A stretch of 63,970 bases of DNA, counting the filler, from Folioceros fuciformis (taxonomy: Eukaryota), in assembly GCA_049999805.1 (NCBI GenBank). It is 11 parts of 10 records of this genome, joined end to end, with 100 filler letters (N's around TTAATTAATTAA, not from the genome) between each part and the next. Parts side by side here need not be neighbours in the genome. Positions count along the whole stretch, not along the records: positions 1 to 9,933 come from JBNGIO010004214.1; 10 more parts are not named here. One strand, 5' to 3'. How positions within the stretch are numbered: position 1 is the stretch's first letter; each line of letters opens with the position of its first letter. A program made the position numbers and the translations under genes. Positions 1,365 through 35,472 of this stretch are shown in pieces. The notes below the pieces were generated by a model. The model was not told the origin of the DNA and did not search any database. It worked only from the letters and a program-made list of their open reading frames with translations.

Positions 1365-1517
1365 TGTTAAACCCCATAGTTTATTATAGTAACCCATGGT
1401 CACTGGGTTACCTAGACTAAGATTAAATATATTACTTAGGGTTTAGTATTTAAGACCAACTCTTTGTAATCATAAATAATTATTCAAGTTTGTTGTTCTC
1501 TCCAAGCAATATTGTCA
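1365..1517 (+). repeat. 5' LTR of element B (153 bp)
   Basis: Direct repeat of 8398-8549 with about 9 substitutions and 1 indel by manual count; followed by a Met-tRNAi PBS. Confidence 0.95.
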
Positions 1518-1528
1518 TGGTATCAGAG
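1518..1528 (+). promoter_or_regulatory. Primer-binding site (initiator Met-tRNA) of element B
   Basis: TGGTATCAGAG immediately after the LTR-terminal CA. Confidence 0.92.
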
Positions 1529-1593
1529 AGTGATATTATCTATCTTCCGCTGCATTGCTAAGAGAGACATGCATACATTTCCTACGCTGGAAA

Positions 1594-2118
1594 ATGCCTC
1601 GCCGCAATAGGAACCGTGTGCCTACAAACAGGAGTTTCTTCAATTTAATCACTAATAGATATATCAGAGAGAGGGATCGTCTAAGGCGCACAAGCCGACT
1701 ATCACGATCAACTTCATTAAATAGAACTCCTGCTCAGCCACAGGCTCCGTGGCGTAATCGGCCTTCTACACCTCCAAATTACCCTGCAATACTGAATAGG
1801 TTTAGGGTATCACAGGATAGAAGGAATTCACAAAGAACACAGGGCGGTGAGCAACCTTGCAGCCAAGGCAATCAAATAGAGAAAGCCTCACGGCGATTTC
1901 TACTTAGTGAAATCTATGACGAACCCATTGTTACCTTAGGAGATTTGCAAGTGTTGCTGTTTAGACACACAACTCGTAGTCAGGCAATTATGGGACAGAT
2001 TTTCCTGGAAATCAACGCCATTAAACAGCAATTGGATGCCCTGGTGAAGCAATTCAGCGAGAATCTAGAATTGAGCGACAGCCCCATATTTGATGGGCAT
2101 CGCCACACGATCTTGTGA
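1594..2118 (+). CDS. ORF0 of element B: 174-aa Arg-rich protein with C-terminal coiled-coil-like helix, unknown function
   Basis: Uninterrupted ORF from ATG 1594 (MPRRNRNRVPT...), between PBS and gag; positional and sequence counterpart at 22467-23036. Confidence 0.7.
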   Translation: MPRRNRNRVPTNRSFFNLITNRYIRERDRLRRTSRLSRSTSLNRTPAQPQAPWRNRPSTPPNYPAILNRFRVSQDRRNSQRTQGGEQPCSQGNQIEKASRRFLLSEIYDEPIVTLGDLQVLLFRHTTRSQAIMGQIFLEINAIKQQLDALVKQFSENLELSDSPIFDGHRHTIL

Positions 2119-2708
2119 ACTTTAGTGGGCATTGCCCGGCCTCCCTACCCAGCAATTTCTGATAAATTTGCCAAAAAAGAAGAAAAGGATGGGAGATTCC
2201 AAGTGTCGTGAGCTAGAAATTGAAAGGACACCAATCAAGTTGAAGGGGCACGGTGAACAGAAGGTTTAATTAATTATTAATTATCAATAATTGTTTAATT
2301 AAGCAAGGCCCGAAGTTCACGCGTTGCTCCCTATTGCCACTCAACCGTCAACTAGTGGCCACCCTTTCACCTTCCCGCGATCGTCAGGCAAACAAGGTTT
2401 CTTCTCCAACTTGCTTGAGGCAAGGCTCGATCTGTGCATCCAGAAGTACTAGAATTCCAGACTGGAGAGTTTCCGGACAGGGTCCAATTTGCGCACCAGG
2501 CCAGGCTTAGATCTTTGCACCAAGGTTTCGCGTCTCTATGCGCACCTAGGAACGGGATTGCACGCAGGATNNNNNNNNNNNNNNNNNNNNNNNNNNNNNN
2601 NNNNNNNNNNNNNNNNNNNNNNNNNNNNNNNNNNNNNNNNNNNNNNNNNNNNNNNNNNNNNNNNNNNNNNGGACCAGGTTTAGTTCACCTTGAACATTTG
2701 CATAAGGA

Positions 2709-3095
2709 GCACGGCCTCACGGCAGGATCCCTGCCTCCTGGCCGCACGGCCTCACGGCAGGATCCCTGCCTCCTGGCCGCACGGCCTCACGGCCTCACGT
2801 ACAAATGATCTGCCGCACTGCTTCTGGATCGGGATCAGCACCCGGCGCACGGAGCGATCAGGATCTGCCGCACGGCCCTTGGTTACACATCTGGTGCCCA
2901 TCACACAGCCCGTAGCCACAGCCTGTACCACATAGGGTTCTCGATCAGCCACAGCCAGCGCGCCCAGGATCAGCCAGCCTCGTACTCACAGGATCAGGCT
3001 CACGGCGCATCCAGGATCAGCCGCCTTAGCCGCACGGCCCAGGATCTGCCGCATAGCCCAGGATCAGCCGCACGGAGTGGAGGATCAGCCCAGAT
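2709..3095 (+). repeat. Tandem and degenerate repeats in the leader of element B
   Basis: 35-bp unit GCACGGCCTCACGGCAGGATCCCTGCCTCCTGGCC x2 plus a partial copy (2709-2798), then recurring CAGGATCAGCC/GCCGCACGG motifs. Confidence 0.8.
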
Positions 3096-3249
3096 ATCTC
3101 TTGCACGTCGCAGCCCACTGAGTGCGCTTGGAAATTTTCTGCACACACCATTCCACACACACTTCTCGTGGATTCTCGTGCGACAGTTAACTTCAAATTG
3201 CTGGAAATTCAGGCAGCCAAGGCTCGGATGGCGAGGACGGCAACGCTGA

Positions 3250-6200
3250 TCCCGAATTCCCGGCAGGAGGCCATGCTACGGATGCGGGCGCCGCCTCCGG
3301 AGTTGCTGGGTCGGCCCCGACTCTTCCGCACAGCCCGTTTTTGGCCAGACAGCATTTGGCTCCCTCCTATCACAAGGAAACTCAACAACATCAACATCAG
3401 GCTGGACCTCCGCTGGAAATTTTTCTAATTTTGCACCTGGACCCTTCTCAACAGGGTCAGGAGGAGGCACAGGATCAAACTTTACTTTCACTGGGGCTGG
3501 AGCAGGATTTTCTTCAGCACAAGCATCAGGTTCAACCCACCCAGGTTTCCCTCAAGCACGGTATTACAACCCACTGCCAAGCTACGGAGCTGGACTTGGG
3601 AATCCACTGCCTACCACAGGAGCTGGACTTGGGAATCCACTGCCTACCTCAGGAGCTGGATTCGCCAACCCACTGCCGACGTTTGGAGCTGGATTTGGGA
3701 ATCCCTTGAGTGGATACGGAACTGGTCTTGGACAAGGAACCGGGCTCATGCAAGGATCCTTGCAGTCACAGCAGCTTGCATGAGCCCTTGCAGTCACAGC
3801 AGCCTGGTCTGGGTACAGTGCTCACAAATCCTGTACATGCACTGCCAATAGCCTATCAGCCTTCTTACACGATTGAGTTCAAGGAGCGGGATAGGTTTAA
3901 CGGGACTACATATCCCGTTTGGAGTGTCCGCATGCGTGCTGCACTAGATGCACGGCATGTGTGGGGTGTTGTTAGTGGACAGATTCAGCCACCTGCAGCT
4001 ACTGCTCCACAAATTGATCAGGAGAGATGGGAGAATGCCAACAACGTAGCCCGAGCCCTCCTCATTAGTGGGCTTGATGAAGTGTTAGTGCCAAACGTCG
4101 CTTTCCTTACCAAGGCCAAGGACATATGGACACAACTTGCACAAACATACGATGTGAAGAATGTACTCACCTTATGTGCTGTCAGAAGTGAGCTGTTTAC
4201 TCTTCGCATGCGTGATGGTGATAAAGTTGCTGCCTTTGTTGGAAAGTTCAGGCAACTCAGAGCTACTTTGATTTCACTTGGTTTTCCCATACCTGAGCTT
4301 GATGCTATAGTATAGCTTTTGACCAGCCTTCCCACAAGCTATCAGTCTTTTGTCACTAGCTATGGTGCCACACTTCGTGATGCTGGTAGGGCTGCAGCAG
4401 TCGGTCAGCCCGTGATGATTAGCTTTGCGGGTGTAGTTGGAGCCCTCCTTCAGGAAGAGCAGTCTCGCAACACATCGCACTTTAATTCTGGTAGGACCAA
4501 AACTGACAAGGTTCTCTCTACATCCAAGTTCCGCCCCAAAGGCCGCGGCAAGCTTACTACAGCTGGCCCTTCTAAGGATTCCAAGTCAGGACAAGTCAAG
4601 AGGACAGGTGCCTGTAATTGGTGCGGGATCCCTTGGTCATTGGGAACGAGAATGTAGAAAGAAAAAGGCTGGAGAATCTAAGAAAGCCGAGAAGACTCCT
4701 CAAGCTCATTCAGTCTCCAAGCCTTTTAAGGCCAGCACCTCGAGCAAGCCTCCCGTTGTTATGACAGTTTGTCTTTCCACTGCTTCCAGGGTGGATGACT
4801 TTTGGTATTTGCATTCCGGAGCAACGACACACATCTGTCACAACCGAACTTTGATGAGCAATTTTGTTCGTTGCACACTGCTGAACGGGTACTTTTGGGA
4901 GATGAGCTTATCAGAACAGGACTCAAGGTTCTTGGACGCGGCTCCTGCTATCTTCAATCATCTGATGGAGAACTCCTTCGACTTGACAACGTCCTCTATG
5001 TGCTTGATATGGCCAAGCACCTTCTGTCAGTGAGCCAGCTTATGCAGCTTAAACATTTTCAACTAACTTTTACTTCTAACGGCTGCATGCTCACCACCTT
5101 TGGTCCTTCACCTTCCCTGGTTGCTAAGGGCTTGCTAGAGCATGATTTATATAGGCTAGATGTGTTTTGTGTACCTTCCAAGAGTGCCCGTGTGGCTGAG
5201 AGGTCTCAGACAGCTTTAGCTCAGTTGTGGCATGCCCGTTTGGGCCATGCTAACAAGGATAAACTCATAAAAATGTCCAACTTAGAATGTTATAGAGAAC
5301 CACTACCTAAGTGTTTTAAGGACCTTCCCATATGTGATTCCTGCATATTAGCCAAGCAGAAAGAACTCCCGTTCCCAACCACTGTAGCTACATGGACCAC
5401 ATCAGTCCTATACCTAGTTCATCTGGGAAAATACATGTTCCTTCTTTAGGTGGTTCCCTCTATTATCTCACACTTACGGATGACTTTAGCCGTTATTCGT
5501 GGACCTTTCCCATGAAGAAGAAGTCAGACACTTTTGTCTATTTTCAAGAATGGCTTACCACAGTTTTGAGACAGACAGGCTGCTTTCTCAAATGTTTGAG
5601 GTCGGACAATGGTACTGAGTTTGTGAATGGCCCTTTTGATGAGTACTTAACTTGACAAGGGATCATTCGGCAACTGAGCATTCCGTACACTCAGCAACAA
5701 AACGGTGTTGCTGAGCGCCGAAACCAAACCTTGCTTAGCATGACTCGGAGTATGCTGGCTTGGTCTGGCTTGAGTAAGGCGTATTGGGCGGAGGTAGTTG
5801 TGACTGCCACCTACATACTCAATAGGTTGCTTACCACAACTGTTCATGATTGTACACCTTTTGAACGGATCTGGAAATGCAAGCCTAGCTTGCTCCATCT
5901 CCGTGTGTTTGGCTCCCCTGCATATGCCTATATCCGTGAGGAACAAAGGAAGAAGCTGGAAGATCGAGCTCGACCCCTTATTTTTGTTGGATATGGTGAG
6001 GAGACGAAGGCCTACAAGTTGTATGACCCCTCCACCAGATCCTCAATCTTTGCTCGGAGCGTCACTTTCAAGGAGCTCACTCAACCAGCTACGACATCTT
6101 CTCTTGCTTCTACCCCTGCTCCTCACTTCGATGATGCGGATTTTGATGCCCCTCCCACAGAGTATCCTCAATATGCTGCTTACGAACCGCCACCTCTCCC

Positions 6201-8254
6201 TCGTTTTGATCAATAGGCAGCTAGCAGTTCAGGGGGTGGAATTCCCGCATATGTGCAGGTTCCCGTGCAAGCACTTGCACCACCAACTCCTGCACCCACA
6301 GCTACAGTTGGTGCTGATCCTGTTGTGGATTTTCCTGAGTAGCAGGATGCAGAACTTGAGCAGGATGCTGATCAAGAATTTGACACACAACATGTGGACA
6401 TCCATCCTGATGCTCCTGACCAGCCAGAAGATGAACTTGAGCTAGCAGTCCTTCCAGAGTCTGAGATACAACTAGTCGAGAAGACACTTCCTGAATCTGC
6501 AGTCAAGGAACGGAGGTACCCTACAAGATCTCATCCTGCACGAGACAACTGGAACACAAGACCATATGAACCAAAGGAAGTTCCAAGACCATATGAACCA
6601 GAGGATTTTCGTCTTCCTCGATCTGCAAGGCTATGTGAAGCCTTCTCTACAAGCACTGCTCATCCAGCAGAACCTCGCACATACAGAGAAGCTATCACCG
6701 CTCAGGATAAGGCTCATTGGATTCCATCCATTCGGGATGAGTACGACTCACTAATGAAGAATGAAACATGGGAGCTTTGCCCCCTACCTGCTAGAAGGAG
6801 AATGGTAAGTTGCAAGTGGGTTTTCAAACACAAACTCAACGCCAAAGGTGAAATAGCACGTTATAAATCACGACTTATGCTCGTGGATTTTCTCAATTAG
6901 CAGGTGTTGATTTTAACGAAACTTTTAGCCCGATTGTGAAGACTCAATCTATCCGGATGCTGTTAGCCTTAGCTGCAGCCAGGGATTGGGATCTGGAACA
7001 AATGGATGTCTCCACAACTTTCCTCTATGGTGATTTGGAGGAAGATATTTATATGGATTAGCTCGAGGGCTTCGTGGATCCTGAGCACCCAAATTGGGTA
7101 TGTAAGCTTAAGAAGGCCTTATATGGGCTCAAACAGAGTGCCCGTGAGTGGTATAAATGCATAGACAAGTATCTTCGCTCTATAGGCTTCCTGCAAAACC
7201 CAGCAGATTCTAATGTGTATGTCTACCCCAAGGGTGGTAATATAGTTGTTTTAGCTCTTTATGTAGTTGATGCCATCTTGGCGTCAAATAATTGAGAGCT
7301 GTTAGATTGGGCTAAGGGCATGCTTCATAAATAGTATGATATGAAAGATATTGGCCCTCTCACTTTTGTTCTAGGCGTACAGCTTCTTAGGAACAGGGAA
7401 ACACGTACTTTGGTTCTTCATCAAACCAAGTTCATCAAAGAGACACTTCGACGTTTTAATCTTCAGGATGCTAAGCCAGTTAGTACTCCTGGATGTGTTG
7501 GTGTTAAGCTTGCTACTCTTCAATGTCCTCAGGATAATTATGATCAAGAAGCCATGAGCCAGATTCCTTATCGGCATGCTATGGGCTGCCTCAACTATAT
7601 CAGCTGCTGGACACGACCTGACATCCAACATTCTGTGAGTGCAGTCTCACAATATCTTGAGAATCCTGGCCAAGAACACTAGACAGCCGTTAAACGGATT
7701 TTAAGATATCTAAAAGGGACTTCTACCTACCTTTGGACTTTGTTTTCAAGGGCAAGACAATGACGTCACCTTGGCGGGATATGCTGATGCGGATTGGGCG
7801 ACTGACCCGGATCAACGTAAAAGCATCTCTGCATATTGCTTCCTTCTATATGGTGTAGCCGTCAATTGGAGTTTGAAGAAGCAAACATCCATCGCTCTTT
7901 CATCCACCGAGGCCGAATATAAGGCCCTTACGGATTCAGCCAAGGAGGCCGAATAGGAGCGGACTTTCCTTGCTGGTTTGAATCTTCCACAGGCTATTCC
8001 TACAACCATTTTTCTGTGACAAGATGTCAGCTATAGCGTTGGTAGGGAATCCTCGGTTTCACGTGCGCACCAAACACATAGAAATTCACCATCATTTTGT
8101 TCGACATTCTGTGGAGCGCAAGGTGATCAAGATCGAGTATATATCAATAGAGTTAAACATAGCTGATATGCTTACAAAGAGCTTACCAACAAACAAGCAT
8201 GTCTTCCACATGGAGGCAATGGGCCTGGTAGAGTATTCTTCCTATTTGCCTTGA
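3250..8254 (+). pseudogene. gag-pol of element B (low-complexity N-terminal extension, Gag, CCHC knuckle, PR, INT, RT, RH), multiply disrupted
   Basis: [92 protein letters not shown]; many TAG/TGA stops and frameshifts. Confidence 0.92.
3568..3732 (+). repeat. 33-bp coding minisatellite x5 (NPLPxxGAGLG-type 11-aa unit)
   Basis: Units start at 3568, 3601, 3634, 3667, 3700; frame 1 reads NPLPSYGAGLG/NPLPTTGAGLG/NPLPTSGAGFA/NPLPTFGAGFG/NPLSGYGTGLG. Confidence 0.88.
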
Positions 8255-8397
8255 GTTGCAGGTGGAGGCGTTGGATGCTGGATGGATGAAGCTTACTGCA
8301 CACCTAATCATCCAACACTCAGCTTGTTTTCTACTTCGGCCATCTTTGTTTTTTTGTCTATGCCCTTGGTGTAACCAGCGTCGTGGTTAAGGGGGTG

Positions 8398-8549
8398 TGT
8401 TAAACCCCATAGTTTATTATAGTAACCACGGTCACTAGGTTACCTAGTCTAGGGTTAAATATATTACTTAGGGTTTAGTGTTTAAGACCAACTCTCTGTA
8501 ATCATTAATAATTATTCAAGTTTGTTGTTCTCTCCAAGCAATATTATCA
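8398..8549 (+). repeat. 3' LTR of element B (152 bp)
   Basis: Follows the PPT; matches 1365-1517; followed by TSD ACCAC. Confidence 0.95.
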
Positions 8550-9933
8550 ACCACTGTCAAGGATCATGTGATTTGTGTGACGGAATAGCCAAGTGTTTCC
8601 TTGTGGCATAGTCGGATAGGACATATGTCTCAAAAAGGAATGAAGATCCTATCTTGTTTTGGTTACGTCCGTGCTTTTGACTTCTCTGATTTCTCCGTGT
8701 GTGAGCACTGTTTGAATGGGAAACAGACAAAGTCACCGCATGGAGCAAGAGGTAAACACAAAAGTATACCTCTTGAATTAGTGGGTTTATCCTTTGAGGA
8801 AAAAGGATGATCGTGTGACAGTGTTTCAGAAATTCGTCACCCTTGTGGAGAATCAGTCTGGCCTCCGACTCAAGTGTTTGAGGACAGACAATGGGGGAGA
8901 GTACGTTTCGAAGGCTTTCCAATCATTTTATGATTCCAAGGGAATCAAGAGAGAATTGATTACGCCTTATACTCCTCCCCAGAATGGTGTGGCTGAACGG
9001 ATGAACAAGACCATTCAGGAGAGGATGCGTAGTTTGTTGTCAAACTCTGGATTGCCTAACGGATTTTGGGCAGAAGCAGTGGTTACTGCAGTGCATCTTA
9101 TTAACAGATCTCCTAATAGGGCTGTGGATGAACAGGTTCCAGAGGAGATGTGGTCTGGAAAGAAGCCGTCATACAAGCATCTATGAGTGTTTGACTGAGA
9201 GGCTTACTACCATGTTCCGAAGGAGTTTCGGGACAAGTTGGCTCCTAAGTCAAGAAAATGTATTTTTCTTAGATATGGTGAATCTGGTGAGATGGGATAC
9301 CATTTGTGGGATCCAGAGACCAAGAGGATGGTTCGCAGCAATGACGTGTTCTTCAATGAGACCAAGATGCACAAGAAGCCTATTCCAATTGTGGAGGTGC
9401 GACAGGTGGTCTTCCAAGAAGATGGATTTGACCGTCTTGCGCAGGTTGAACGTCATGATGTCCAGGAACAAGTTCCTCCACTTATAGAAGAGGAGAGAGT
9501 GCAACCAGCTCCGGTCGAGGCGCCAATGCTTCGTAGGTCAAGAAGGATCTCACGTCCTCCTGACAAGTATCAGGTATGTTGCATCTCTTGATTATGTCAT
9601 GCTGACGGATTGTGGGCAGCTCTCTTGTTACCAAGAGGCCATGTCAGTGACTGACAAGGACAAGTGGGAGAAGGCGATGCAGTCGCAAATGGATTCGCTC
9701 CACAAGAACCAAACTTGGGAGTTGGTTCGGTTGCCTAGGGGCAAGAAGGCGTTGCCGTGCAAATGGGTGTATAAGATGAAGGACATACCCCATTATGGCA
9801 AACCCAAGTACAAGGCACAATTAGTTGCTAAGGGTTTTAAGCAACAGCAAGGTATTGACTTTGATGAGATTTTCTCACCAGTTGTCAAAATGACCACCTT
9901 GCGATGTGTTCTTGGTCTGGTTGCGAGGCACGA

Positions 9934-10474: not shown

Positions 10475-12365
10475 CTTGGATGACTGCCTGGTCATCTCCT
10501 CTTGCAGCAGAGCTCCAACCAATGCGTTGAACTCCAGTGCAGGCACTTGATCTTCATCGATGTTTGCTACCAAGGCCAGCTGCCTGGCCATCCGCAACAC
10601 CGCATTCTGGCTAGACACAAAGTGTGAATAGCTCGGGGGTAAGGCTGACAGAAATCTTACACAGGCATCCTGCTCATTCACTCATGCACCAGTCTACTCC
10701 AGCTTGAGTCTTGCACTCCTAAACTGCGTGACAAACTGGTCAATCGGTTCTCCTTCCCGCATTTTGAGTGAATGGTATTTGGTTTGAGCAGCCATCCTCG
10801 TCATCATATCCTTGGCATGATAGACCATGGCCAAGTGATCCCACATTTCCTTAGCTGTTTGGGCATCAATCACGCTCATAGCCATTTGCTCACTCAAGCC
10901 AATGCGAATAATGCCTTGTGCTCTCTCATCTAGCTGATCCCAACGCTGCTGTCCAGGTGAAGTGCTTCGGAAACTAAGGATGTCAACATCCGGCCTTGGA
11001 GTTTCTCCTGTGACATGTCCCCACAAGCTAGCTTCCCTCAAGAAACCACGCATGCGCATCACCCACACATCGTAGTTGGCTCCGCTGGTAAGGCAGTCCT
11101 TTTCCTTGAAATCAACCTTCACAAACGGGAGTCTCTCATGGTTAAGTCTTTCCTCACGTTCCTTCTCCTCCCTTTCTCTTCTTTCCACTTCTCTATCTGC
11201 TCTCAGTTTTTCTAACCTCTCATGTTCCTTCCTTGCACGCTCACGGTCGGCTTCCTCGTCCATTTCTGACTGTTCAACACCCTCTTGGAACAAGCCCCTA
11301 ATGCTCGCTAGAACTTGGTACTCAAGTGCTTAATCGAAGCCTTCATCTGAGCCGTACTCCAGGATTTAAGATGAGGTATCCTGAGTTGCACCCGAAGCAG
11401 GTGCATCAACTGTACACCAGGGGGTCACAGGGCTGGTAGCGCCCTCTTCTCCTGGATTCGCAAGGATCGAAGTGTGCTGGCCTCCTCTCTTGACGCCGAT
11501 TAGCAAACCACCAATGCCGAGATTGCTCCATGGTCACCCGATGCACGTCAGCATCAGCAGCAGTGCTATCGCTGCTCTCCCCATCCTGGACCATCCAAAA
11601 CTCTCAAGAAACCACCAATCTCCAGAGCTTCCAGCACCCACTTGATCGACGGAGCACAAGCCTTGCACGCTTGCGCACAGGGAAAGCACCAGTGCTTGGG
11701 ATGCAGGGACAAAGTCTCCTCTCTTGCCAACATGGCTTCAACTGCCCATTCGATCAGTAGTGCTAGGTCTTGATCTACGAACTGTGCCAGGTAGTTCATC
11801 CACCAGATTGTGTGCTCCAAGTCTGGCTGCAACGTTGCCTTCGTTGCCTCACGCTGGGCTGCCTACTGCTGCACGTACACTGCTGGCTACAACAACCCAG
11901 CAATGTCGCCAGCACCTAGCTGCACTCCACCAGGCCCGGCAGCCCCTCAAGCAAGTGCGCAACTAGGTTGCCGCCCACCTGCGCCTCTGCCACACGCCAC
12001 CGCGCTACATCCAGCAATCCATCTCAGTCGTGCTGCCTGCATAGACAAATTCTGGTTGCTCTCAAGTGTGTGCGCCGCGCGGATTAGCGGCCGCCAGGTC
12101 AAGCAATCAGCACATCCAAGTGCGCCATCTCCACCTGCTCTGATACCATATAGCAATTTATCGCGATTGCTAGGTAGGATCGATCATAGCACGCTTGAGC
12201 AAGGGAGCAGCGATCGTGCATGAGCAAAACTTGAGGCAAGAACAATAAAAACGGGTATTGGAGTTTGCGCGACTTGGCGCATATGAAGTTTGATGAAAAC
12301 AGTTATTAACTGCCTCCTTAATAAGTCCTAATTAATATGAGTTGCTAATCTAAACACTTCCAACA
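10475..12365 (-). mobile_element. 5' part of Ty1/copia element E (same lineage as B/D): LTR 12149-12365, PBS 12137-12148, leader, gag; inserted in the leader of C
   Basis: Minus-strand TGTTGGAAG start at 12365; PBS TGGTATCAGAGC; Gag DFKEKDCLTSGANYDVW...LPPSYSHFV...VGALLQEE; C leader resumes at 12366 (GTAAC, compare 49546-49550). Confidence 0.85.
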
Positions 12366-15300
12366 GTAACTACCAAAATCTACATTACATTGCGACAGTT
12401 TCTAACTAGCCTTTTGCTTGATGTGCATCGATTTTGAATCATGACATCCTCAGAAAACGTCATGTTCAATATTGAGAAGTTAGATGGTACTAACTTTCCG
12501 TTATAGAGAGAATAAGTGTATAATGTTCTAGTGCAGAAGAAGTAGATCAAACCCATAAAGTTGTTAGGAGTGAAACTTGTTAGCATGACTCAGGATGAGT
12601 GGCAAGATCTAGATGAGCTTGCTAGGTCTACCATCATGCTAACATTCTCGAAGTCGGACTACTTCAATGTGAAAGACAAGACCACAAGTTACAAGCTATG
12701 GCAGAACATGACTTGTATGAGAAGCAAAGTGGGCTTCTCAGGTGTACTGGTTGAAACAGCTGGTGGACTTGAAGATGAAGGAAGGGACGAGGATGTCCAA
12801 TCATGTGAATGAGTTCAATACCATTTTCAGCCAGCTCTCATCTCAAGGTATGTCATTCCCATATTCCATGAGAGCTATGTTTCCACTGGTCACATTACTA
12901 GAGAGTTGGGACACTTTTCGTACAACTCTAAGTAATTCTGCTCCTGCCAATGGTCTTACCATTGTAAATATAGAAGGTAGCCTGTTAACAAAAGAGGGGA
13001 ACAGGAAGAATATGGAACCTTCGAAAGGTTTCAAAGACCTCATTGTGAGAGGAAGGTCCACTTCAAAGGGGAAGTACAAGGAGCGAAGTCTTTCCCGTAG
13101 CAAATCTTGTAGTCGTAACAATGTTGAGTGTTACCATTGTCACAAAAAGGGTCACATCAGAAGGGACTGCGAGCAGTTCAAGAAGGACAAAGGAAAGGAG
13201 AAGAAGCACAGCGACAAAAAGGCAAGTCTGAGTATCAAGCATGACGAGGTGAATTCTATTGGTAATGGAGATGTTCTTATCTCTTCTTCCTTCAATTCTA
13301 TGCAATTGACTGCCATGGATAGTCACTTATTCTCTAATTGGATAATTGACTCTAGAGCATTTTTCCATGTTACTCCGCATAGGGAGTGGTTTAGCACCTA
13401 TGATGCTATTAGGAAAGGATGTGTTCGGCTTGGAAATAACTACGCATGCAAGATTGTAGGCGTTGGTGATGTGCAGCTGAAGTTTGACAACGGATCTTCA
13501 TTCGTACTGAAGGATGTTAGGCATGTTCTGAAGTTGACAAAAAGCATGATTAGCGTAGGGCAATTGGATGATGTTGGCTACCATTGTTGGTTTGGGGATA
13601 ATTCTTGGAAGATCTCCAAAGGTTCTCTTCTATTAGCTCGTGGATCAAAGTGTGGCACTTTGTACTCACTTCAGGAAACCTCTGTCAAGGATCATGCGAT
13701 TTGTGTAACGGAATAGCCAAGTGTTTCCTTGTGGCATTGTCGGTCAGGACATATGTCTCAAAAAGGAATGAAGATCTTATCTCATTTTAGTTACGTCCCT
13801 TCTTTTGACTTCTCCAATTTCTCCGTGTGTGAGCACTGTTTGTATGGGAATCAGACGAAGTCACCACATGGAGCAAGAGGTAAACACAAAAGTAAACCTC
13901 TTGAATTGGTTCACAGTGACGTTTGTGGATCTATGCCCACTGTATCGTTAGGCGGTGCATTCTATTTTGTCACTTTTATAGATGATTTCTCACGCAAGGT
14001 GTGGGTTTATCCCTTGAGGAAAAAGGATGATGTTCTGATAGTGTTTTAGAAATTCGTCACCCTTGTGGAGGATCAGTCTGGCCTTTGACTTGAAGTGTCT
14101 AAGGACAGACAATGGGACAAAGTATGTTTCGAAGGCTTTCCAGTCATTCTGTGATTCCAAGGGAATCAAGAGAGGATTGACTGCCCCGTATACTCCTCCT
14201 CAGAATGGCGTGGTTGAACAGATGAATAGGACCATCTAGGAGGGGATGCATAGTTTGTTATCAAACTCTGGATTGCTTAACAAATTTTGGGCAGAAGTAG
14301 TGGTTACTATAATGAATCTTATTAACATATCTCCTAATAAGGCTATGGATGAGCAGGTTCCATAGGAGATGTGGTCTCGAAAGAAGCCGTCATACAAGCA
14401 TCTACGAGTGTTTGGCTGCAAGGCATACTACCATGTTCCAAAGGAGTTTCGGGACAAGTTGGCTCCCAAGTCAAGAAAATGTATTTTTCTTGGTTGTGGT
14501 GAGTTTGGTGAGATGGGATACCGTCTATGGGATCCAGAGGCCAAGAGGGTTGTTCGCAGCAATGACGTGTTCTTAAATGAGACCAAGATGCACAAGAAGC
14601 CTACTCCAACCGTGGAGGTGCGACGGGTGGTCTTCCAAGAAGATGGTCTTAACCGTCCATCGCAGGTTGAACATCATGATGTGCAGGAACCAGTTCCTTC
14701 ACTTGTAGAAGAGGAGAGAGTGCAACCAGCTCCGGTTGAGGTGTGTATGCTTCGTAGGTCATGAAGGATTTTACGTCCTCCTGTCAGGTATGTTGCATCT
14801 CTTGATTATGTCATGTTGACGGATTGTGGAGAGCCCTCTTGTTACCAAGAGGCCATGTCAGTGACTGACAAGGACAAGTGGGAGAAGGCGATGCAGTCGC
14901 AGATAGCTTCGCTCCATAAAAACCAAACTTAGGAGTTGGTTTGGTTGCCTAGGGGTAAGAAGGCATTGCCATGCAAATGGGTGTATAAGATGAAGGACAT
15001 ACCCTATTATGGCAAACCCAAGTACAAGGCATGGTTGGTTGCTAAGGGTTTTAAGCAACAGCAAGGTATTGACTTTGATAAGATTTTCTCACCAGTTGTC
15101 AAAATGACCACCTTGCGATGTGTTCTTGCTCTGGTTGCGAGGAATGATACGGAACTTGTCCAGATGGATGTGAAGTCGGCCTTTCTACATGGTGATCTCC
15201 AGGAAGAGGTATACATGCAACCAGAGGGTTTCATTGAGAAGGACAAAGAGAATATGGTGTGCAGGTTAAAGAAGAGTCTTTATGGTTTGAAACAGGCACC

Positions 15301-16627
15301 CAAAGAGTGGTATTACAAGTTCCAGTCATTTATGCTTTCTCAAGGCTACAAACGTAGCGAGGAGGATTATGGCCTCTATACAAAGCAAGCCAAGGATGGA
15401 AGCTTGCTCATTCTGGTCCTCTATGTGGATGATATGCTAATTGCTGGGAATAGCAGTGATGAGATTTCAGCATTGAAGTCAAAGTTGAATGCTCGATTTG
15501 ATATGATAGACTTGGGAGAGGCAAGCCATATTCTTGGCATGCGTATTCGTCGAGACAAACAAAAGCATTTGCTTTATTTGTCTCAAACTGAATACATTAA
15601 CAGGGTGCTTCAACGTTTCAATATGAAGAAGGGGAAGGTATTGAGTACTCCGTTGCGTCCATATGTGAAACTTTCGAGCAAGGATTGCCCAAGGTCTATG
15701 GAGGACAAAGCTGAAATGGAGAAGGTTTCATACTCATCAGCTGTGGGGAGTTTGATGTATGCAATGATTGCTACACGTCCTGACATTGCTTTTGCAGTGG
15801 GAGTGGTTAGCAGGTTTATGTCAAACCCTGGCAGAAAGCATTGGGAGGCAGTGAAAGGAGTTATGAGGTACTTAAATGGTACCAAAACTTTGTGCTTATG
15901 TTTTGGTAGTGAAGATGCATCTGTCATGGGATATATGGATGTTGATTATGCAGGGAATATAGACAAAAGGAGGTCCACATCATATTATGTCTTCATGTGC
16001 ACTGGAGGGGCAGTCTCATGGCAATCTCGTTTGCAATCGTGCATAACGCTATCTACCACAAAGACCGAGTATGTTACAGCGACTAAGGCGTGCAAGGAAG
16101 CCATGTGGCTTGCTCATTTAGTGGGAGATTTTGGGATCAAGGTTGAGCTGCCAATGTTGCATTGTGATAGCCAGAGTGCTATCCAATTGGCAAAGAATCC
16201 AGTGTTTCATGCAAAGACAAAACATGTGGAAGTGAAGTATCACTTTATTCGAGAGGTGTTGGAAGACAAGAGGGTATAGCTTATCAAAGTTCACACTAGT
16301 CAGAACCCTACAGATATCCTTACCAAGGGGCTCTCTACGAAGCAATTCGCAGAAGCTCAGACACTCATGGGCATGAGGTAGACCACTCTCCTATGAAGGT
16401 AAATTGGCCTTTAAGTGGGAGGTTGTAGGGTTATTCAAGCCCAATGTGCTTAGACTATTGTGTTTAGTCTAAGATTAGTGTTTAGTTAAATATCATTTGT
16501 TTAGATTAGCTTAAGCTAATTTGTAGGAAGCTTCTTGCGCAACTTCCTTGGGAGCTCTTCTAGATGGTATAAATACCCCCTTGAGCTCCCTTACAATTGA
16601 GACATTGTGAGAGTGTGACCTCTCTTT

Positions 16628-16813
16628 TGTTATTTTATGCATTTTGTTCAAGGATTATTTAGACAACGAATACTTGTGACAATGCAGCAAAAGAACTTAA
16701 TTTAATTAATACAAAATTGTAGCTTTTATAGTGTCAAGTTTGTTAAACCCAAAAGACTTGTGTTTAATCGAGTTAGGTTAATCTAACCCATGGTTATCTA
16801 AATAACCTTAACA
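16628..16813 (-). repeat. 3' LTR of element D
   Basis: Direct repeat of 23182-23367; TG...CA ends; adjacent PPT. Confidence 0.95.
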
Positions 16814-17095
16814 CCCCCTCTTAACCTGACGAGGTTAAAGTAAATATTTAAACCCTAACGGGCCATAAACCCTGTCACCCCCTCATGATGAAGCAGACGT
16901 GCAAAGTTGTTGTGTAGCACAAGCGGGAAAATCATGCAGGGAGCATGACGGACGATCCAACTTCAGACAAGGACAGATGTGAATGCTCAGGGCAAGCTGA
17001 AGATGGATCTAGGCGCCTTGCTCTCACGGTACCAGGGCTAAGAACAACCACTGCAGAGGGAGTTCTCGGTCTCCCGTGTTCTATTGCAGGAAGGA

Positions 17096-17470
17096 ATGGC
17101 ACGCAAGAAGGGTGGCGGCTTGAGTTGTCAGCAACATCCAAGGAAGGAGTCGTCACAGCAGCATAGTAACTCAGTTGAGCCTAGCGAGACTCAAGTATCG
17201 AAGAAGCCTATGGAGTGGCCTACACAGTCAGATAGGAACTTGGTGTGTCATCTGCTTCAGACTGCTCAGAAGTGCGAGGAGGTCGAAGAAGCAATCAAGG
17301 CCGCAAAGTGTCGGGTCTTGGAGCTTCGAGACTTGGTCGCCAAGTTCCCACCACGGGATCCGACCATGTTTCCACTATTAGAGTGTGAAATACAACACCT
17401 TGTGAAGGAACTGAGCACGCTGGGATATACTGGAGCAGTCGGCGGTGTGCCTGAAGCTGGTGATGACTAA
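17096..17470 (+). CDS. Antisense ORF in the 3' non-pol region of element D (124 aa from ATG 17096; possibly ~178 aa ancestrally from ATG 16934), unknown function
   Basis: Lies between the pol stop and PPT with no overlap of pol; amphipathic helical composition; same frame extends to 16934 through two stops explicable as C>T changes. Confidence 0.45.
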   Translation: MARKKGGGLSCQQHPRKESSQQHSNSVEPSETQVSKKPMEWPTQSDRNLVCHLLQTAQKCEEVEEAIKAAKCRVLELRDLVAKFPPRDPTMFPLLECEIQHLVKELSTLGYTGAVGGVPEAGDD

Positions 17471-17644: not shown

Positions 17645-20600
17645 TCACTTCCTGTCAGTAGAGCACACACTATCTTGTACTCTCCCGTTCAGCATAGCAA
17701 ACACCCTTAAGTCCATAGAGGCAAGATGCTTGTAGTGCTTGGCCTTAGAAAGCCCTCTGGTCAATAGGTCTACTATATTTTCATTTGTGCTTACATACTC
17801 CACCTTAGCCACACCTCTCTCCACCACATCTCTAATGTAGTGGTGATAAAGCTCTATGTGCTTTGTCCTTGCGTGGAATCATGGATTAGCCACGAGGGCT
17901 ATAGCATACATATTATCACATAGTAGTTGAGTTGCAAAGGTTTGTGTCATAAAGAGGGATTCTAAAAATTGTCTTTCCCATTCAAGTTCCTTGTAGGCAT
18001 CTGTTAGGGCCTTGTATTCAGCCTCAGTAGACGATAGTGCTAATGAAGATTGCTTTTTACATGACCAATTGACAACACCAGAAGCTAGTAAACATACATA
18101 GGCAGATAGACTCTTACGAGTGTTTGAATCTGATGCCCAGTCAGCATCAGCTAGGGCAGTCAGCACAAAACTCTTCTTGCCACTAGCAGTGTAATGCAGG
18201 CCTAAATTAATTGTTCCCTTTAGGTAGCGATAGATACGTTTGACTGCAGCCCAGTGGACTCGACCTGGAGTCTTGATAAATTGAGCTACCATACTAATAG
18301 AGAAGCTTATATCTGGTCTAGTCCAGTTTGCCAGGAAAATGAGACAACCAACTGCCTCAGGATAAGGGACACCAGCCATATCCTTTTCTTCATCTGCAGA
18401 ATGAGGGGACATGTCAATTGACAGCTTTTCACCTACAATGGAAGGGGTAGTTACAGGACGAGCTTCATCCAGGTGAAATCGTTTAAGTATTTCCTTGAGA
18501 TATTTTGACTGATGAAGGAAAATTGTTCCGTCCTACATGTTTCTAAGTATTTGAATACCCAAGCACAACTGAAGAGCACCTTGGTCTGTCATCTCAAATT
18601 CGCTCCTCAGAAGATCCTTAACCTTGTTCATCTGTGACATGCTGTTGTTCAATAGAATTGCATCGTCGACATACAAGGCCAGGATGACAAAAAGCTCAGA
18701 CTCAAATAAGTAAAACACATTTGAGTCTACTGATGATTGTGAGAAGCCTGCCTTACACAAGAACTTCATAATTCGTTTATACCAGGCTCTGGGGCATTTT
18801 TTCAAACCATAGATAGTCTTCAAAAGTTTGCAGACTTTACCCGGCCATTTCTTACTAATAAATCCTTCTGGTTGGTTCATGTAGAGAACCTCTTCCAGTT
18901 CTCGATGTAGGAAGGCCGTGCAGACATCCATCTGATGGAGTTCAAGATCAAACTCAGCGGCAAGTGCAAGCAGGATTCTGACAGATGGGGGCTTCACTAC
19001 GGGGGAGAAAGTATCTCCGTAATCTATCCCAGGAATCTGTGAGAACCCTCTTGCCACCAGTCTGCTTTTATATCTTGCTATAGTTCCATCTGACTTTAGT
19101 TTAGTTTTAAATACCCATTTACAGGTAATAGGTTTTTTGCCTGGTGGCAGATCAGCTAGCTCCCACGTCTGGTTTTTGAGGAGACTATTGCACTCATCAT
19201 TCACTGACACTTGCCAATGGGCCCCATCAGAACCATTCAGTCCTTCATCAAGTGTTCGAGGATCAGGTCTAACATCAGGTACATACAAGTCTGTTACATT
19301 GGCTGTAGTATACCTCCTGAAATCTTCAGATTGATAAGGTGGCTCATCCCATAACTCTCGTGGTCTTCTCATCCTTACAGGATAGCGAGAAGGAGGATCA
19401 GCACCAGCAGCCTCATCATGATCCGACAGTACAACATCAATGTGAGCTTCACTGTTATCCGAGTCTTCAAAAACACCTGGCTGCTCATCATTATATTGGT
19501 GATCCCCCTCATAGTCCTCAGCATCAATAGGATTTGGATCTACAGGAGGTGTACCAACAGCAGGTACCAAAGGCAGGTCAATCTGTTCATTTTGTGGCTG
19601 TAAGAGAGCATCAACTGCTACATGGTCTAAGAGAGTAGGAACATCTCCGTCTGACTGTGGGTATTCTTGTATGGACTCTATATCAACAAGTGTATTCTCA
19701 AGAGTGGTAGACAAGGAATCTGTTTGAGGAGTCAAAAGTTCCTTGAAGGTAATGCTACGTGCTAGTGTAATCTTAGAGGTCTTAGGGTCATACAACTTAT
19801 AGGCTTTGGATTCCTCTGAATAGCCAACAAAGCTGGAGGGTTTAGACCTATCATCTAACTTCCCCCTCTTGGCTTCAGGGACAAAAGCAAAAGCAGGTGA
19901 CCCAAAGACCCGCAAGTGCAGCAGGCTAGGCTTGCGACCCCAGATAGCTTCATAAGGGGTGCGACCAGGCAGAGCCGAAGTAATAAGTCGATTCAGAATG
20001 TAAGTAGCTATCACCACAGCTTCTACCCAGAATGTTTTTGGTAAGTTAGCCCATGAGAGCATGCTGTGTGTCATGCCCATCAAAGTTTGATTTTTGCGCT
20101 CAGCAACACCGTTCTGTTGTTGTGTATAGGGCACAGACAATTGGCGAAGTATACCATATGCTTGGAAAAGATCATCAAACCGATGGCCAATGAATTCCCC
20201 TCCATTATTAGTCTGGAAGCATCTGACAAGCCGTCCAATCTGTCTTTGGACCATCAGGATCCAGGTTGAGATGTGTTCGAACACATCACTCTTCAACTTG
20301 ATAGGGAAGGTCCAAGTATGGCGGGAAAAATCGTCATTCAGTGATAGATAGTACTTTGCTCCACCAAGAGACTTCACAAGCAGCTTTCCAGCAATGTCAG
20401 CATGCACAAGTTCAAGGACAACAGTTGCCATGGTAGGTTGTTTATTCTTGAAAGGCAATTCTTTTTGTTTAGACAGTATGCAGGATGTGCAGGCTGGCAG
20501 ATGCTTGAAACAGCTGGGGAGCTTTTCTCTGTAGCAGGTGGAGTTCAACATAAAATCCAGCTTTGACTTGTTCACATGGCCCAACCTCGCATGCCACAGG

Positions 20601-22131
20601 TTAGCCTTTCCATTGTACGAAGCAAGATAGACTCTAGTGCGTGACTTAGACACCTGGACCAATTGATAAAGATCATGTACTAAGACAGCCTTAGCAAGAG
20701 TCTTCTCTGGACATGTAAGGGAATACAAGTTGCACATACTACTTTCAAAACAAAAACCATATAGGTTCATTCTAGAAATGGCTCTAACAGACAATAAGTT
20801 TCTACTCATTCTGGAACAAACAGAACTTCCTGAAGATGCGGGGTTGAACCATCAAGAAGTGGTATGTCTACTGTACCTTTCCCTTTTACCTCAATGCCTC
20901 GTGCATCACCCACAAAGATTGACTGAGGGGTTTGCAGTTTGTGAAAGGAAGAAAACATATGTCGATTGTTGCAGACGTGAGCAGTCGCTCCCAAATCAAC
21001 GAACCAACACTAAGTGTTCTCTGTAGTCGAAGTCAGACAAACTGTAAGTACAAAACTGCTGCTTCGAGGTTGTTGATGGCCATTCGGAGATTTTGCCTCC
21101 TTAGATGAAACATGAGCCTTTGATCTAACAATCTTTTTGGGCTCTCTAGCTCTCTTCTTTCTGTAGTCACGTTCCTAGTGCCCAGGTATCTGGCACCAGT
21201 TGCAACTACATGTGCGCTTAGTGGTGGAGGAAGAGGTACCAAAAGTGTTTGAAGAATTCTTCTTACTTTTGTCCTTTCCTTTCCATTGATTCTTGCCTTT
21301 TTCAGCAAAAAGCACTTTCTCACCACGCAGCCTTGAACCAGAGCGAGAACGTTGGCGGCTCTGCTCCTCTTGCAGGAGGGCCCCAACTATCTCATTTAGA
21401 TTAAGTGTAGAAGGTTGACCACTTGCTACCGCTGAGTAGGCATCACGCAAAGTGGCATTTTGGCTGGAAATAAAAGATTGATAGGATGAAGGCAGGCTGG
21501 TCAGCAGCTATGCTATCATCTCCACTTCAGTGATCTTGGTACCTAACGCAGCAAGCTGTGCTCGTAGGTGCCTCAACTTGGTGACATGAGCACCAACTGG
21601 TTCCCCCTCCCTCCACCTCAAACTATGAAAGTCGTTTCTTGCGTTGATCATGGTACATATGTTTCTGACCTGATAAGTGTCATGAAGTTGTTTCCACACA
21701 GCTTCTGCTGACTCAAGCGAATCAACCTCAGTGACTGTAGTCTCATCCAGGCCTGACAGGAGAATGGCAAATGCAACCTTGTTGCACTTCTTCCACTTTG
21801 CCTTGTCATCAGGCGTGGGCTGAACTGCAGTTGTAGCTGGTACAAGGAAAGGGTTCGGAATAGTGCCATCAACATACTCCAAAACGTCGCGAGCATCAAG
21901 GTTAGCTCTCATTCGTACTTTCCAGCTTTCAAAACGTAATGCTTTTCCATCAAACCTGTCTTTTTCCTTAAACTCACCGTAGTATGATGATCCTACAGAT
22001 ATAGACAAGGGTCCTTGACCTGTAGTCATGTTGACACCAACAGAGAGTGGAGGAGTTGAAGGATTCGAGAAAAGCCAGGAGAGTTGATCAGTATCACTAT
22101 CAGAGTCAGTATCTGCAACAAATAGGGACAT
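17645..22131 (-). pseudogene. gag-pol of element D, lightly disrupted (758-aa PR C-terminus/INT/RT stretch open)
   Basis: FKEKDRFDG; CNWCQIPGH; LWHARLGH; QTNNGGEF; QQNGVAERKNQTL; TCKWVFK; LYVDDAIL; ADADWA; SSTEAEY. Confidence 0.94.
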
Positions 22132-22466
22132 GCTCTATTGAATGTTGAGAAAACAGACAGACGCCATAAGAGACTTGAAACGGTAAGTCCTAAAACTTAA
22201 ATGCCCCTTCAAGTTTTTTTTTTTTTTTTTTAAGTGAATAACTTTTCAACAAACCCTAAGCATGTCACACAACATCTAACTTATAACCGTTTGTGCCTGC
22301 AGACATTCTCAAAATGCAAGGGACGCAACCCAAGCATAAATTAGGAAGACAGCAAGGACATCTTCAACACCTAGACACTCCAACCAACAGGCGCAATCAT
22401 CAGTAGCGCCTGTTGAGAGCTCCAAGGCAGCGTATTGTAAATTCACAAGCTGTCTCTCACACCCGT

Positions 22467-23036: not shown

Positions 23037-23181
23037 AGAAACAAGAGTCTAATATGTCTATCATCGAGATTGCTAGGACTTCAGAGTAGACACACTAGAC
23101 TCGACATATTTGCAATCACATGGCAAAGAACATAAGTAATAGTATAGCAGAAGTCTCAGAGCATCGAGAGCTCTGATACCA

Positions 23182-23367
23182 TGTTATTTTATGCATTTTG
23201 TTCAAGGATTATTTAGACAAAGAATACTTGTGACAATGCAGCAAAAGAACTTAATTTAATTAATACAAAATTATAGCTTTTATAGTGTCAAGTTTCTTAA
23301 ACCCAAAAGACATGTGTTTAACCGAGTTAGGTTAATCTAACCTATGGTGATCTAAATAACCTTAACA
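23182..23367 (-). repeat. 5' LTR of element D
   Basis: Matches 16628-16813; PBS adjacent at 23171-23181. Confidence 0.95.
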
Positions 23368-23809
23368 TCTTTCTCCTCTCCTGCTTGCTTCCTCTTCTCC
23401 TTCTTCACCATGTGGCTCCTCTAACGATACTTTAGAGGATTCTTAAACCAAGTACCCAATGTTTATGCAATGGAATTAGTGTACTTGTTGATCAACGGAA
23501 CTCTAACCTTGTGGTGTAGGCGGTGAGACCTTGCTAGGCATAGAGTTCAGGGGCCATTAAAAGGATGGCTACTGGGTCCTGAGTTTAGTTAAAGGTCTCG
23601 CCACTAGCATATATAAGAAAGAGAAAGGTAGCATAGACTAGTAGGATGAGAAACTTGGTAGCTATAATACCATGACAACATTTGTTGGCACTAGCTCTGA
23701 AAGCAAAAGAAAGCTATTCATATTTAATAATAATAAAACTATATTCAATAATAATAAAACTATCTAATATACAAAAATAAGTCAGTGTCCATTTGTTCTA
23801 GGGTTATTG

Positions 23810-33729: not shown

Positions 33730-35472
33730 TAGACTTGAAGGAAGCGCTGCAACTCCGTTTCCAACCTGCTAATGCTGCAAAGGATGCTCGACAATGTCAA
33801 GCATACTGGAAATGTGCGGGAGTATGTGAGTGAATTCAGCTCTTATGTCTTGCAATGTTCTAAGATGCATGAACAAGACAAACTCCACAAGGCCTTCAGA
33901 GGTGGGCTTAGAACCTGATTGCGTTGACTAATCCTTAGACGCTGCAAGAGGCTATGGCAGCAGCAGATGCTATACCAGACATATTCGTTCAGGAAGCTCA
34001 AGTCTCGAGAGGAAGATATTCCAGATCTCGGGGTAGTTCTAGAGGCAGAGGAAGAGCCACCATTACTAGGAACAATGGCACTAATGAGAATACTGGTAGA
34101 GGCCGTGGTAGAGGCAATAATGGAGGTCGTGGAAGACGACAAGTAGTGCCTACCTCAGGTGTATGCTATAGTTGTGGAGAGCAAGGACACTTTGCTAGGA
34201 ATTGTCCGCATGCAAGAGCTCCTAACTTAAATTTAGTTGCCGCAAATCTAGCTGTCCCAAAAGCTAAGATCAAAGAACTCCCTAAAGAGTCTAAGTGACG
34301 CCATGGGCCACATGTTGTCAAGACATGTGGTGGGTCATTGAGTGTCAAGGATGACACTATTTTCAAAGAAGGTGGAGACCTTATGTATATATGTGGCAAG
34401 ATGAATGGCTTTGATGTAGTGTTGGATTCTGTAGCCACCCATAATTTTGTAACCCTACATAAAGCAAGAGAGCTTGGTCTTGAATGGACTAAAACTTCCA
34501 CACCATATGGAATCAAGCAAGCTAAAGGGACTCTACAATTTCTAGGTGAATTACATAGAGTAAAGCTGCAAGTTGAGGCATGGCAAGGAAGTGTGAGTTT
34601 TACAGCTGTGGAGATGGATGACCATAATATCATCTTAGGTCTAGAGTGGATAAAATCTAATAAAGTGCACATGGATATTAAGTCATGCACCATTGAGATA
34701 TCCAAGAAGCACAAGGTGAGTTGTGTTAGTGTTAGCCAGAGGCTTGAGAGTGCATTGGTAAAGTTGATTTCAAAAAGAGAGTACATTTGATTTCAAAAAG
34801 AGAGCTCAAGAAAGACCTCATAAAAAAGGTGTTATACTTGGTTGTACTCCAAGGACTATAGGATGGTCTGGAGGAAGATTCCATAGAGGAGAAGGACATC
34901 TCAAAATAAGTACAAGCTGTACTAGATGAGTTCAAGGACTTGATGCCAGATGAGTTGCCACCATTGTTGTCTCGAAGTGTAGTAGATTATGAGATTGAGT
35001 TGAAGCCAACGAGTGCACTTCCTTCGAGAGCACCATATAGATTGTCACAGGATGAGTTGTAAGAAGTCAAGCGATAACTATCCAATCTATTAGCAAAGGG
35101 ATATGACAGAGTTTCTAAGTTTCCTTTTGGTGCGCTTGTACTATTCACACGCGAAAAGAATGGAGGACTCACATTTGTTTGGATTACAAAGCTTTGAACA
35201 AGATCACAATCAAGAATGCATATCCTTGGCTGAGAATGGATGACATGTTTGATAGATTGAAGGGTGCCAAGTATTTCACCAAGTTGGACTTGATGGTAGG
35301 GTACTATCAAATCAGGATTGCTGAGGGGCATTAGTATAAAACAGCATGTAGGACAAGATATAGATCTTTTGAGTTTCTTATCATGCCATTTGGACTTACT
35401 AATAAACCTGCCATATTTCAGACTCTTATGAATACTTTATTCATAGATCTAGTGGACAAGTTTTTTTTTAAT

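Follow-up and report, generated by a model that had tools for sequence, protein, structure and literature searches.

The stretch of DNA analysed here (63,970 nt from Folioceros fuciformis, GCA_049999805.1; referred to below as the window) consists of small scaffolds strung together with N44-12nt-N44 spacers, and it carries two retrotransposons, designated B and D, each with a long sense open reading frame (ORF0-B and ORF0-D, respectively) in its 5' leader. Both elements were found to be complete Ty1/copia insertions with paired TG..CA LTRs, a PBS, a PPT and a 5-bp TSD, their class being indicated by a copia-type gag and by the position of the integrase before the reverse transcriptase. Retrotran_gag_2 was recognised by Pfam in the gags of both, and tblastx analysis revealed that the two are collinear throughout, gag to RNase H, with an amino acid identity of 44–59%; the elements are thus related, and B is the closest relative of D within the window. 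Since the window is a concatenation of scaffolds and such spacers lie between the two elements, B and D are located on different scaffolds, while a blastn comparison of the two elements identified no match between their LTRs; both of these features had been claimed in the original prediction and both were borne out. In each element the 5' LTR is directly followed by the 11-mer TGGTATCAGAG, which we take to be complementary to initiator tRNA-Met (i.e. an iMet-type PBS), and which matches the window seven times with at most one mismatch (1.21 matches expected).

Element B lies on the plus strand and is flanked by the TSD ACCAC (1360–1364, with the second copy at 8550–8554, as read from the sequence). 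Its 5' LTR (1365–1517; 153 nt, TG...CA) is approximately 93% identical to the 3' LTR (8398–8549) over a 124-nt ungapped core and is followed by the PBS at 1518–1528. The leader contains an assembly gap of 100 N (2571–2670), downstream of which it continues as a GC-rich part with short tandem repeats and low DNA-run depth (2671–3249), the depth across B being lowest on 2307–3246. The gag region (3250–4315) consists of a Gly-rich N-terminal extension followed by Retrotran_gag_2 (3932–4312), with the frame being broken near 3781 and gag homology beginning near 3809. This Gly-rich extension (3250–3783) includes a 33-nt repeat present in 4.1 copies (3571–3704), and the gag of D is without such an extension. 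The pol region (4415–8254) comprises gag_pre-integrs, SH3_retrovirus, RT and RNase H regions in many broken frames, and only about 130 nt separate its end from the PPT (8385–8397). Element B was itself observed to be nested, with a clean duplication of 5 bp, within a copia element to which it is unrelated (element A; 121–1364 and 8550–9869, based on repeat-family comparison), a second copy of which occupies 12396–16279 of the next scaffold at 87–93% identity.

Element D lies on the minus strand between two copies of the TSD AAAGA (23368–23372 and 16623–16627). Its 5' LTR (23182–23367; 186 nt) is 96% identical to the 3' LTR (16628–16813), and the PBS, the PPT and the gag gene (Retrotran_gag_2) are positioned at 23181–23171, 16814–16826 and 21508–22131, respectively, the latter starting with an ATG at 22131 and ending at a premature in-frame stop. 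The pol region (17650–20809) consists of a 758-aa ORF with the domain order gag_pre-integrs, rve, SH3_retrovirus and RVT_2, followed by the RNase H region. The copies of both elements are therefore dead, as gag-pol of B is split over many frames while gag of D is stopped early. Between pol and the PPT of D, a 124-aa ORF is located in antisense orientation (17096–17470, plus strand); it is weakly longer than expected by chance (p = 0.028, 2000 shuffles), has no Pfam match above threshold and has no counterpart in B.

A third and more distant relative (element C; 10694–12148, minus strand) is represented by a PBS (12148–12138, an 11-mer match), a leader and a gag gene (11263–10694), the product of which exhibits 29% identity to the gag of D. 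This gag was also seen to begin with a strongly charged Glu/Arg-rich stretch. The leader of element C extends over 874 nt from PBS to gag and is GC-rich, yet it lacks an ORF0, its longest sense ORF being 77 aa (p = 0.31 in the shuffle test), which indicates that a long leader is a general property of the group, whereas possession of ORF0 is not.

ORF0-B (1594–2118, plus strand; ATG at 1594) encodes a protein of 174 aa with a pI of 11.5, and ORF0-D (23036–22467, minus strand; ATG at 23036) encodes one of 189 aa with a pI of 6.3, their start codons being located 64 and 133 nt, respectively, 3' of the PBS. Intact sense ORFs of 174–189 aa, positioned after the PBS and apart from gag, had been predicted, and both were confirmed to be open at these coordinates, with stop-filled spacing to gag of 335 nt in D and of more than 1.1 kb plus the assembly gap in B. 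The lengths of the two ORFs were compared with those obtained in 2000 dinucleotide-preserving shuffles of each leader of approximately 1.05 kb: the 174 codons of ORF0-B were rarely attained (p = 0.002), and the 189 codons of ORF0-D were reached in none of the 2000 shuffles. The lengths of both ORFs are thus non-random. Neither ORF contains tandem repeats, and the remaining five frames at each locus carry 5–17 stops apiece, from which it follows that neither ORF0 is a mere shadow of some gene lying in a different frame or on the other strand. Furthermore, 18 ORFs of at least 150 aa were identified in the window. Of these, 13 were recognised as coding (gag or pol of copia or gypsy elements, plus one importin-like host exon) and three coincide in part with sequence that is coding, or likely to be so, in a different frame or on the opposite strand, leaving ORF0-B and ORF0-D as the only two that are unexplained.

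Codon usage was scored as a log-ratio trained on the TE ORFs of the window, using sense codons only. In frame, ORF0-B and ORF0-D scored 0.025 and 0.049, respectively, each above its own off-frames. For comparison, coding controls scored 0.017–0.215, and the 95th percentile for windows without coding sequence was 0.045. The codon usage of the two ORFs is only borderline coding-like. The antisense ORF of D had the highest score of the three orphan ORFs (0.085).

The start codons of both ORFs are overlapped by a uORF. In B, a single ATG is present between the PBS and ORF0, and a uORF of 13 codons plus stop (1569–1610, plus strand) overlaps the start of ORF0-B; in D, five ATGs form four short uORFs upstream of ORF0-D, the last of which (approximately 23067–23029, minus strand) overlaps the start of ORF0-D, and the start context of ORF0-D is weak. 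On the other side, a purine/A-rich tract (2173–2196, plus strand) lies 55 nt past the ORF0-B stop, and an A18 tract (22214–22231, minus strand) lies 236 nt past that of ORF0-D. Such tracts could be what is left of a poly(A) tail that was captured or, alternatively, internal polypurine tracts. An 11-mer common to both post-ORF0 regions, TTGAAGGGGCA, was dismissed as a chance occurrence, at least two matches (with no more than one mismatch) being obtained in 54 of 100 shuffles.

At the protein level, the N-termini of both products are basic (14 R+K against 2 D+E within the first 50 aa of ORF0-B, and 13 against 5 in ORF0-D), while their C-terminal parts are acidic. ORF0-B exhibits an Arg-rich N-terminus followed by a middle region that is predicted to be disordered. 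Low-confidence models place helices at residues 12–35 and 128–159 of ORF0-B, and at residues 20–46, 53–81, 96–116 and 121–152 of ORF0-D. Both proteins would therefore possess one helix near the N-terminus and a second, long one in the C-terminal part, the latter with hydrophobic residues spaced 4-3-4-3, this spacing being read from the sequence while the helices derive from the low-confidence models. The single-sequence AlphaFold2 models of ORF0-B and ORF0-D reached a mean pLDDT of 52 and 57, respectively, values that would not allow a search by fold to be meaningful, and prediction of a two-copy complex for residues 105–174 of ORF0-B returned no usable answer, with a score of 0.02 against a mark of 0.32.

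Direct comparison of the two proteins by BLASTP yielded no significant match (E = 13). The original prediction had aligned a 43-aa segment of each without gaps (B114–156 with D104–146); the heptad positions of these segments do coincide, but with six identities in 43 positions (score 30) the similarity is non-significant, the p-value of the pair, taken as the best ungapped 43-mer, being no lower than 0.025 (1000 shuffles). The best local alignment pairs B53–148 with D10–113 in a different register (p = 0.014–0.023), and a semi-global alignment gave a p-value of approximately 0.19–0.21 (300 shuffles). Similarly, the motifs PRR, YIR and [RK]DR[LV]R..S are present in both, as had been claimed, but the spacing from YIR to RDR is one residue in B and 12 in D. 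The B/D sequence alignments consequently do not display the significant similarity that would mark one homologous ORF0 family. What remains of the proposed common layout is a non-random sense ORF of similar size and place with a basic N-terminus and a heptad helix, but no significant similarity of sequence; likewise, the description of the gene as conserved and under selection found no support, given that no significant B/D similarity was detected and that codon usage is borderline.

Relatives of the two ORFs were sought in several databases. No Pfam domain was recognised in either, PDB sequences returned nothing below E = 0.05 for either, and no homologue of either was identified in the ESM Atlas, where look-alikes with scores of 0.76 and 0.83 and low recognition serve as leads only. 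A word index of 5.8 billion protein clusters, searched near the query length, contained no match to ORF0-B or ORF0-D. At the scale of billions of proteins ORF0-B was covered by this word index only, while ORF0-D was also covered by a full HMMER search of 1.84 billion representatives; the two hits obtained in the latter (E = 3e-5 and 3.4e-4) are long repetitive proteins and were rejected. A control search of the same 1.84 billion representatives with the gag of D retrieved a single relative (61% identity), indicating that this lineage is hardly sampled and that the lack of ORF0 homologues in these databases is a weak result. Furthermore, neither metagenome contigs nor viral contigs produced an ORF0 match, and when the window was searched by tblastn with ORF0-B, ORF0-D and the antisense ORF of D, only self hits were obtained below E = 0.1.

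Other copies of the B region were assessed in four sequencing runs, which were compared with 1367–8398 at a likeness of at least 80% (505, 510, 260 and 11 records). Two DNA runs of one sample contain 50% and 43% of the words of 1367–2570, and at the listed sites three to five diverged contigs per run (X1 and X2) indicate that several copies of the ORF0-B region exist. Contigs 352 and 374 nt long align with 1596–1971/1990 at approximately 88%; they show 44–46 differences, and their length is changed by a net 24 nt. Among the best-supported listed changes, five fall inside ORF0-B (two synonymous, two jointly causing Leu>Ile, and one Thr>Ala), while the best-supported listed indels are situated in the LTR and just past the ORF0-B stop (5 and 4 nt) and none is inside the ORF; beyond those listed, the compared interval 1367–8398 holds a further 1590 changes and 75 indels. 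The deletions of 5 and 4 nt in other copies of B fall at places 2172 and 2183, at the purine/A-rich tract. These copy variants point towards constraint on ORF0-B, if only anecdotally. In run X4, which is RNA by guess, four contigs were observed to be identical to 2729–3866 (B leader and gag N-terminus), and these could reflect an internal transcript start or the presence of DNA in that run; the same run is without a contig on 1367–2541, a lack of cover that carries no evidential weight. In run X3, C>T (291) and G>A (252) predominate among the differences, a pattern like that of a bisulfite-converted library, and a run of this type could report cytosine methylation over element B.

The novelty that the original prediction attached to a 5' extra gene was overstated, as 5' sense extra ORFs constitute an established class in LTR retrotransposons, exemplified by ORF0 of Retrosat2 and the 5'aORF of Tekay in the available portions of two reports (PMC3485330, PMC11728184). 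The 5' sense ORFs of the Retrosat2/Tekay gypsy elements are described in the former as keeping their position while diverging in sequence, with pol conserved (PMC3485330), and the excerpted text of the latter ascribes to the sunflower Tekay 5'aORF protein an NLS, few alpha-helices and long disordered regions (PMC11728184). Like the ORFs described here, Retrosat2/FRetro3 ORF0 and the Tekay 5'aORF are, in these portions, sense ORFs situated between the 5' LTR/PBS and gag-pol to which no function has been assigned, and the Tekay protein has the general look of ORF0-B. They differ, in a comparison made by description and from partial texts, in belonging to Ty3/gypsy, in their large LTRs (more than 3 kb in Retrosat2) and in the size of the protein (approximately 400 aa), whereas B and D are Ty1/copia elements with LTRs of 153–186 nt and ORFs of 174–189 aa. 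A different superfamily also separates B and D from Ogre, a Ty3/gypsy element in which the extra ORF is located 5' of gag. In the part of the study of Neumann et al. that was consulted (PMC6317226), extra ORFs are a lineage feature of the Ogre/OTA clade beside long non-coding regions, a point of resemblance to B and D; in contrast, a plant mobile domain occurs in 57% of the Ogre extra ORFs (PMC6317226), while the ORF0s are without a Pfam domain.

With regard to Ty1/copia itself, the same portions of Neumann et al. (2019) report extra ORFs of at least 250 codons in 582 elements, which fall into four position classes, including 5' forward, and form 45 dissimilar groups, the SIRE 3' forward ORF being the only one named there as characteristic of a copia clade (PMC6317226). 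ORF0-B and ORF0-D lie upstream of and outside the polyprotein frame and outside tandem repeats, as is the case for the eORF-5'F class, but at 174 and 189 codons they fall short of the length of at least 250 codons that defines it; ORFs of this size would therefore be missed by that survey. The env-like eORF-3'F of SIRE is likewise a copia extra ORF and varies strongly from family to family, with 19 mutually dissimilar groups in the consulted text (PMC6317226), but it is located 3' of pol, whereas the 3' ORF of D is antisense and B offers only the short interval between pol and PPT, such that neither element has a sense ORF between pol and the 3' LTR. Extra ORFs 3' of pol are the commonest in plant LTR retrotransposons according to the accessible part of a review by Vicient and Casacuberta (PMC7264820), and those common-bean copia families that possess extra ORFs are described, in a source similarly available in part, as having them in this location (PMC4093653). 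The former review reserves the term conserved aORF for one shared by the majority, or the whole, of a family's copies (PMC7264820, excerpted text). In the literature searched, no paper was found in which a sense ORF in the 5' position characterises a lineage of Ty1/copia, although the per-lineage supplements and Figure 4 of PMC6317226 may list such ORFs.

The explanation we favour is that both ORF0s are true, lineage-specific 5' aORFs, encoded by the elements of two Ty1/copia families that are related to each other, analogous to those of the Tekay and Ogre gypsy elements and open in the active parents of the present copies, and we consider the case for it to be evenly poised. The five upstream ATGs and the weak start context of ORF0-D count against it. 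It is somewhat doubtful that the two ORFs are non-functional relics, i.e. captured or duplicated leftovers, or lucky open stretches in long and fast-evolving leaders, from which no useful protein is made. Two ORFs in the same place, neither of which is likely to have arisen by chance (p = 0.002 and < 0.0005) and which alone among the long ORFs of the 64 kb lack an explanation, are difficult to reconcile with such an origin; a relic shared since the split of B and D, whose pol is approximately 50% identical, would be expected to have acquired stops, and the net length change in the diverged copies of the B region is in frame. The absence of detectable B/D conservation and of homologues, the borderline codon usage and the long leader of element C without a significant ORF (p = 0.31) would nevertheless all be compatible with relics, and the available text of Neumann et al. 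expresses doubt about the function of such divergent extra ORFs (PMC6317226). The present intactness of the ORFs is silent on this question in so far as selection after insertion is concerned, as an intact ORF of approximately 550 nt would survive by luck in some 40–60% of cases at the gag-pol break rate, which was estimated from the dead copies of B and D.

The lack of significant similarity between ORF0-B and ORF0-D is also what would be seen had two unrelated sequences been acquired 3' of the PBS (e.g. from host mRNA via template switching), in which case the ORFs might both be real genes but would be non-homologous, and an 'ORF0 lineage' would not exist. The A18 tract of D and the A/purine tract of B do resemble retained poly(A) tails, and independent gain from many sources is inferred by Neumann et al. 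in the portion consulted (PMC6317226). We consider such a double acquisition unlikely, since the two ORFs share a similar size, charge polarity and helix layout as well as a start codon overlapped by a uORF, and since no host paralogue was found, albeit in databases that barely cover this lineage. It is very unlikely that ORF0 is a long regulatory uORF whose translation throttles or times gag-pol, or marks the RNA for packaging, with the peptide itself being unimportant: such a device has no need for 174–189 open codons and would tolerate stops, while the excess length of the ORFs argues that the frame itself was kept. The 5'-proximal location of ORF0 on the genomic RNA, with 7–18 more ATGs before gag, and the very fast evolution of the peptide would suit this role, and the copia-type element BARE is reported, in the available part of the source, to keep the RNA pool that is translated apart from the one that is packaged (PMC3735527).

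If ORF0-B and ORF0-D are indeed accessory genes of their elements, they would work like a Tekay-type 5' aORF, but their hosts are copia elements whose LTRs are very short, and they are smaller than the threshold usually applied. ORF0 would then be the first long ORF on the LTR-to-LTR transcript, preceded by very short uORFs only, and its product would begin with an arm rich in Arg and Lys, continue through a variable middle and end in an acidic part that contains an amphipathic helix of three to four heptads. Judged by its sequence, this product is probably an RNA-associated protein with a basic N-terminal and a helical C-terminal part, RNA binding being suggested by the Arg-rich arm and oligomerisation by the heptad pattern. 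It could act as an accessory factor on the element's own RNA, whether as a chaperone, as an aid to nuclear export or packaging, or as an anti-silencing factor. Because gag-pol lies behind ORF0 and the 7–18 ATGs that separate ORF0 from gag, its expression would need a bypass, for which splicing, internal initiation or entry, and an internal promoter are candidates.

Rev-type accessory proteins of complex retroviruses are small and combine an Arg-rich N-terminal arm with an oligomerising helical region. The ORF0 products resemble them in size, in the Arg-rich arm and in a potentially oligomerising helix, a likeness of composition only, as the R+K and D+E counts given above demonstrate for the arm. 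Rev is made from spliced 3' exons and not from a 5'-proximal ORF, and no sequence or fold match to the ORF0s was obtained for it. A Rev-like or anti-silencing function of ORF0 would be purely speculative. The boldest interpretation, that a single ancestral and fast-evolving 5' accessory gene, encoding an Arg-rich oligomeric RNA-binding protein, defines a 'complex' short-LTR clade of Ty1/copia, appears improbable at present; under it, ORF0 would be translated from the genomic RNA ahead of gag and would be needed for RNA handling or for escape from silencing, and the 'complex' copia lineage would parallel the complex retroviruses and the Tekay/Ogre gypsy elements.

Should ORF0-B and ORF0-D prove to be real genes, accessory genes in the 5' leader would not be confined to Ty3/gypsy, and survey thresholds of at least 250 codons would miss small accessory genes in copia. 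Furthermore, the ORF0 proteins would become candidates for element-encoded RNA chaperones or silencing suppressors, and their existence would raise the concrete matter of how the elements express gag-pol when a gene located ahead of it is translated. Should they not be real, they would represent another case of orphan ORFs in fast-evolving retrotransposon leaders.

Elsewhere in the window, an Rfam search of positions 1–25550 returned no match. Two further ORFs on the minus strand are without a Pfam match: one of 206 aa (34166–34786), which lies antisense both to an ORF for a gag zinc knuckle and to the next ORF and adjoins a gypsy-type RT-RNase H ORF, and one of 175 aa (38510–39037), which overlaps a 144-aa ORF on the opposite strand; both are probably shadow ORFs. 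Additionally, an open frame of 430 aa (30623–31915, minus strand) encodes importin-5-like TPR/HEAT repeats (PF25780, E = 1e-38) and represents the exon of a host gene amid the transposons.
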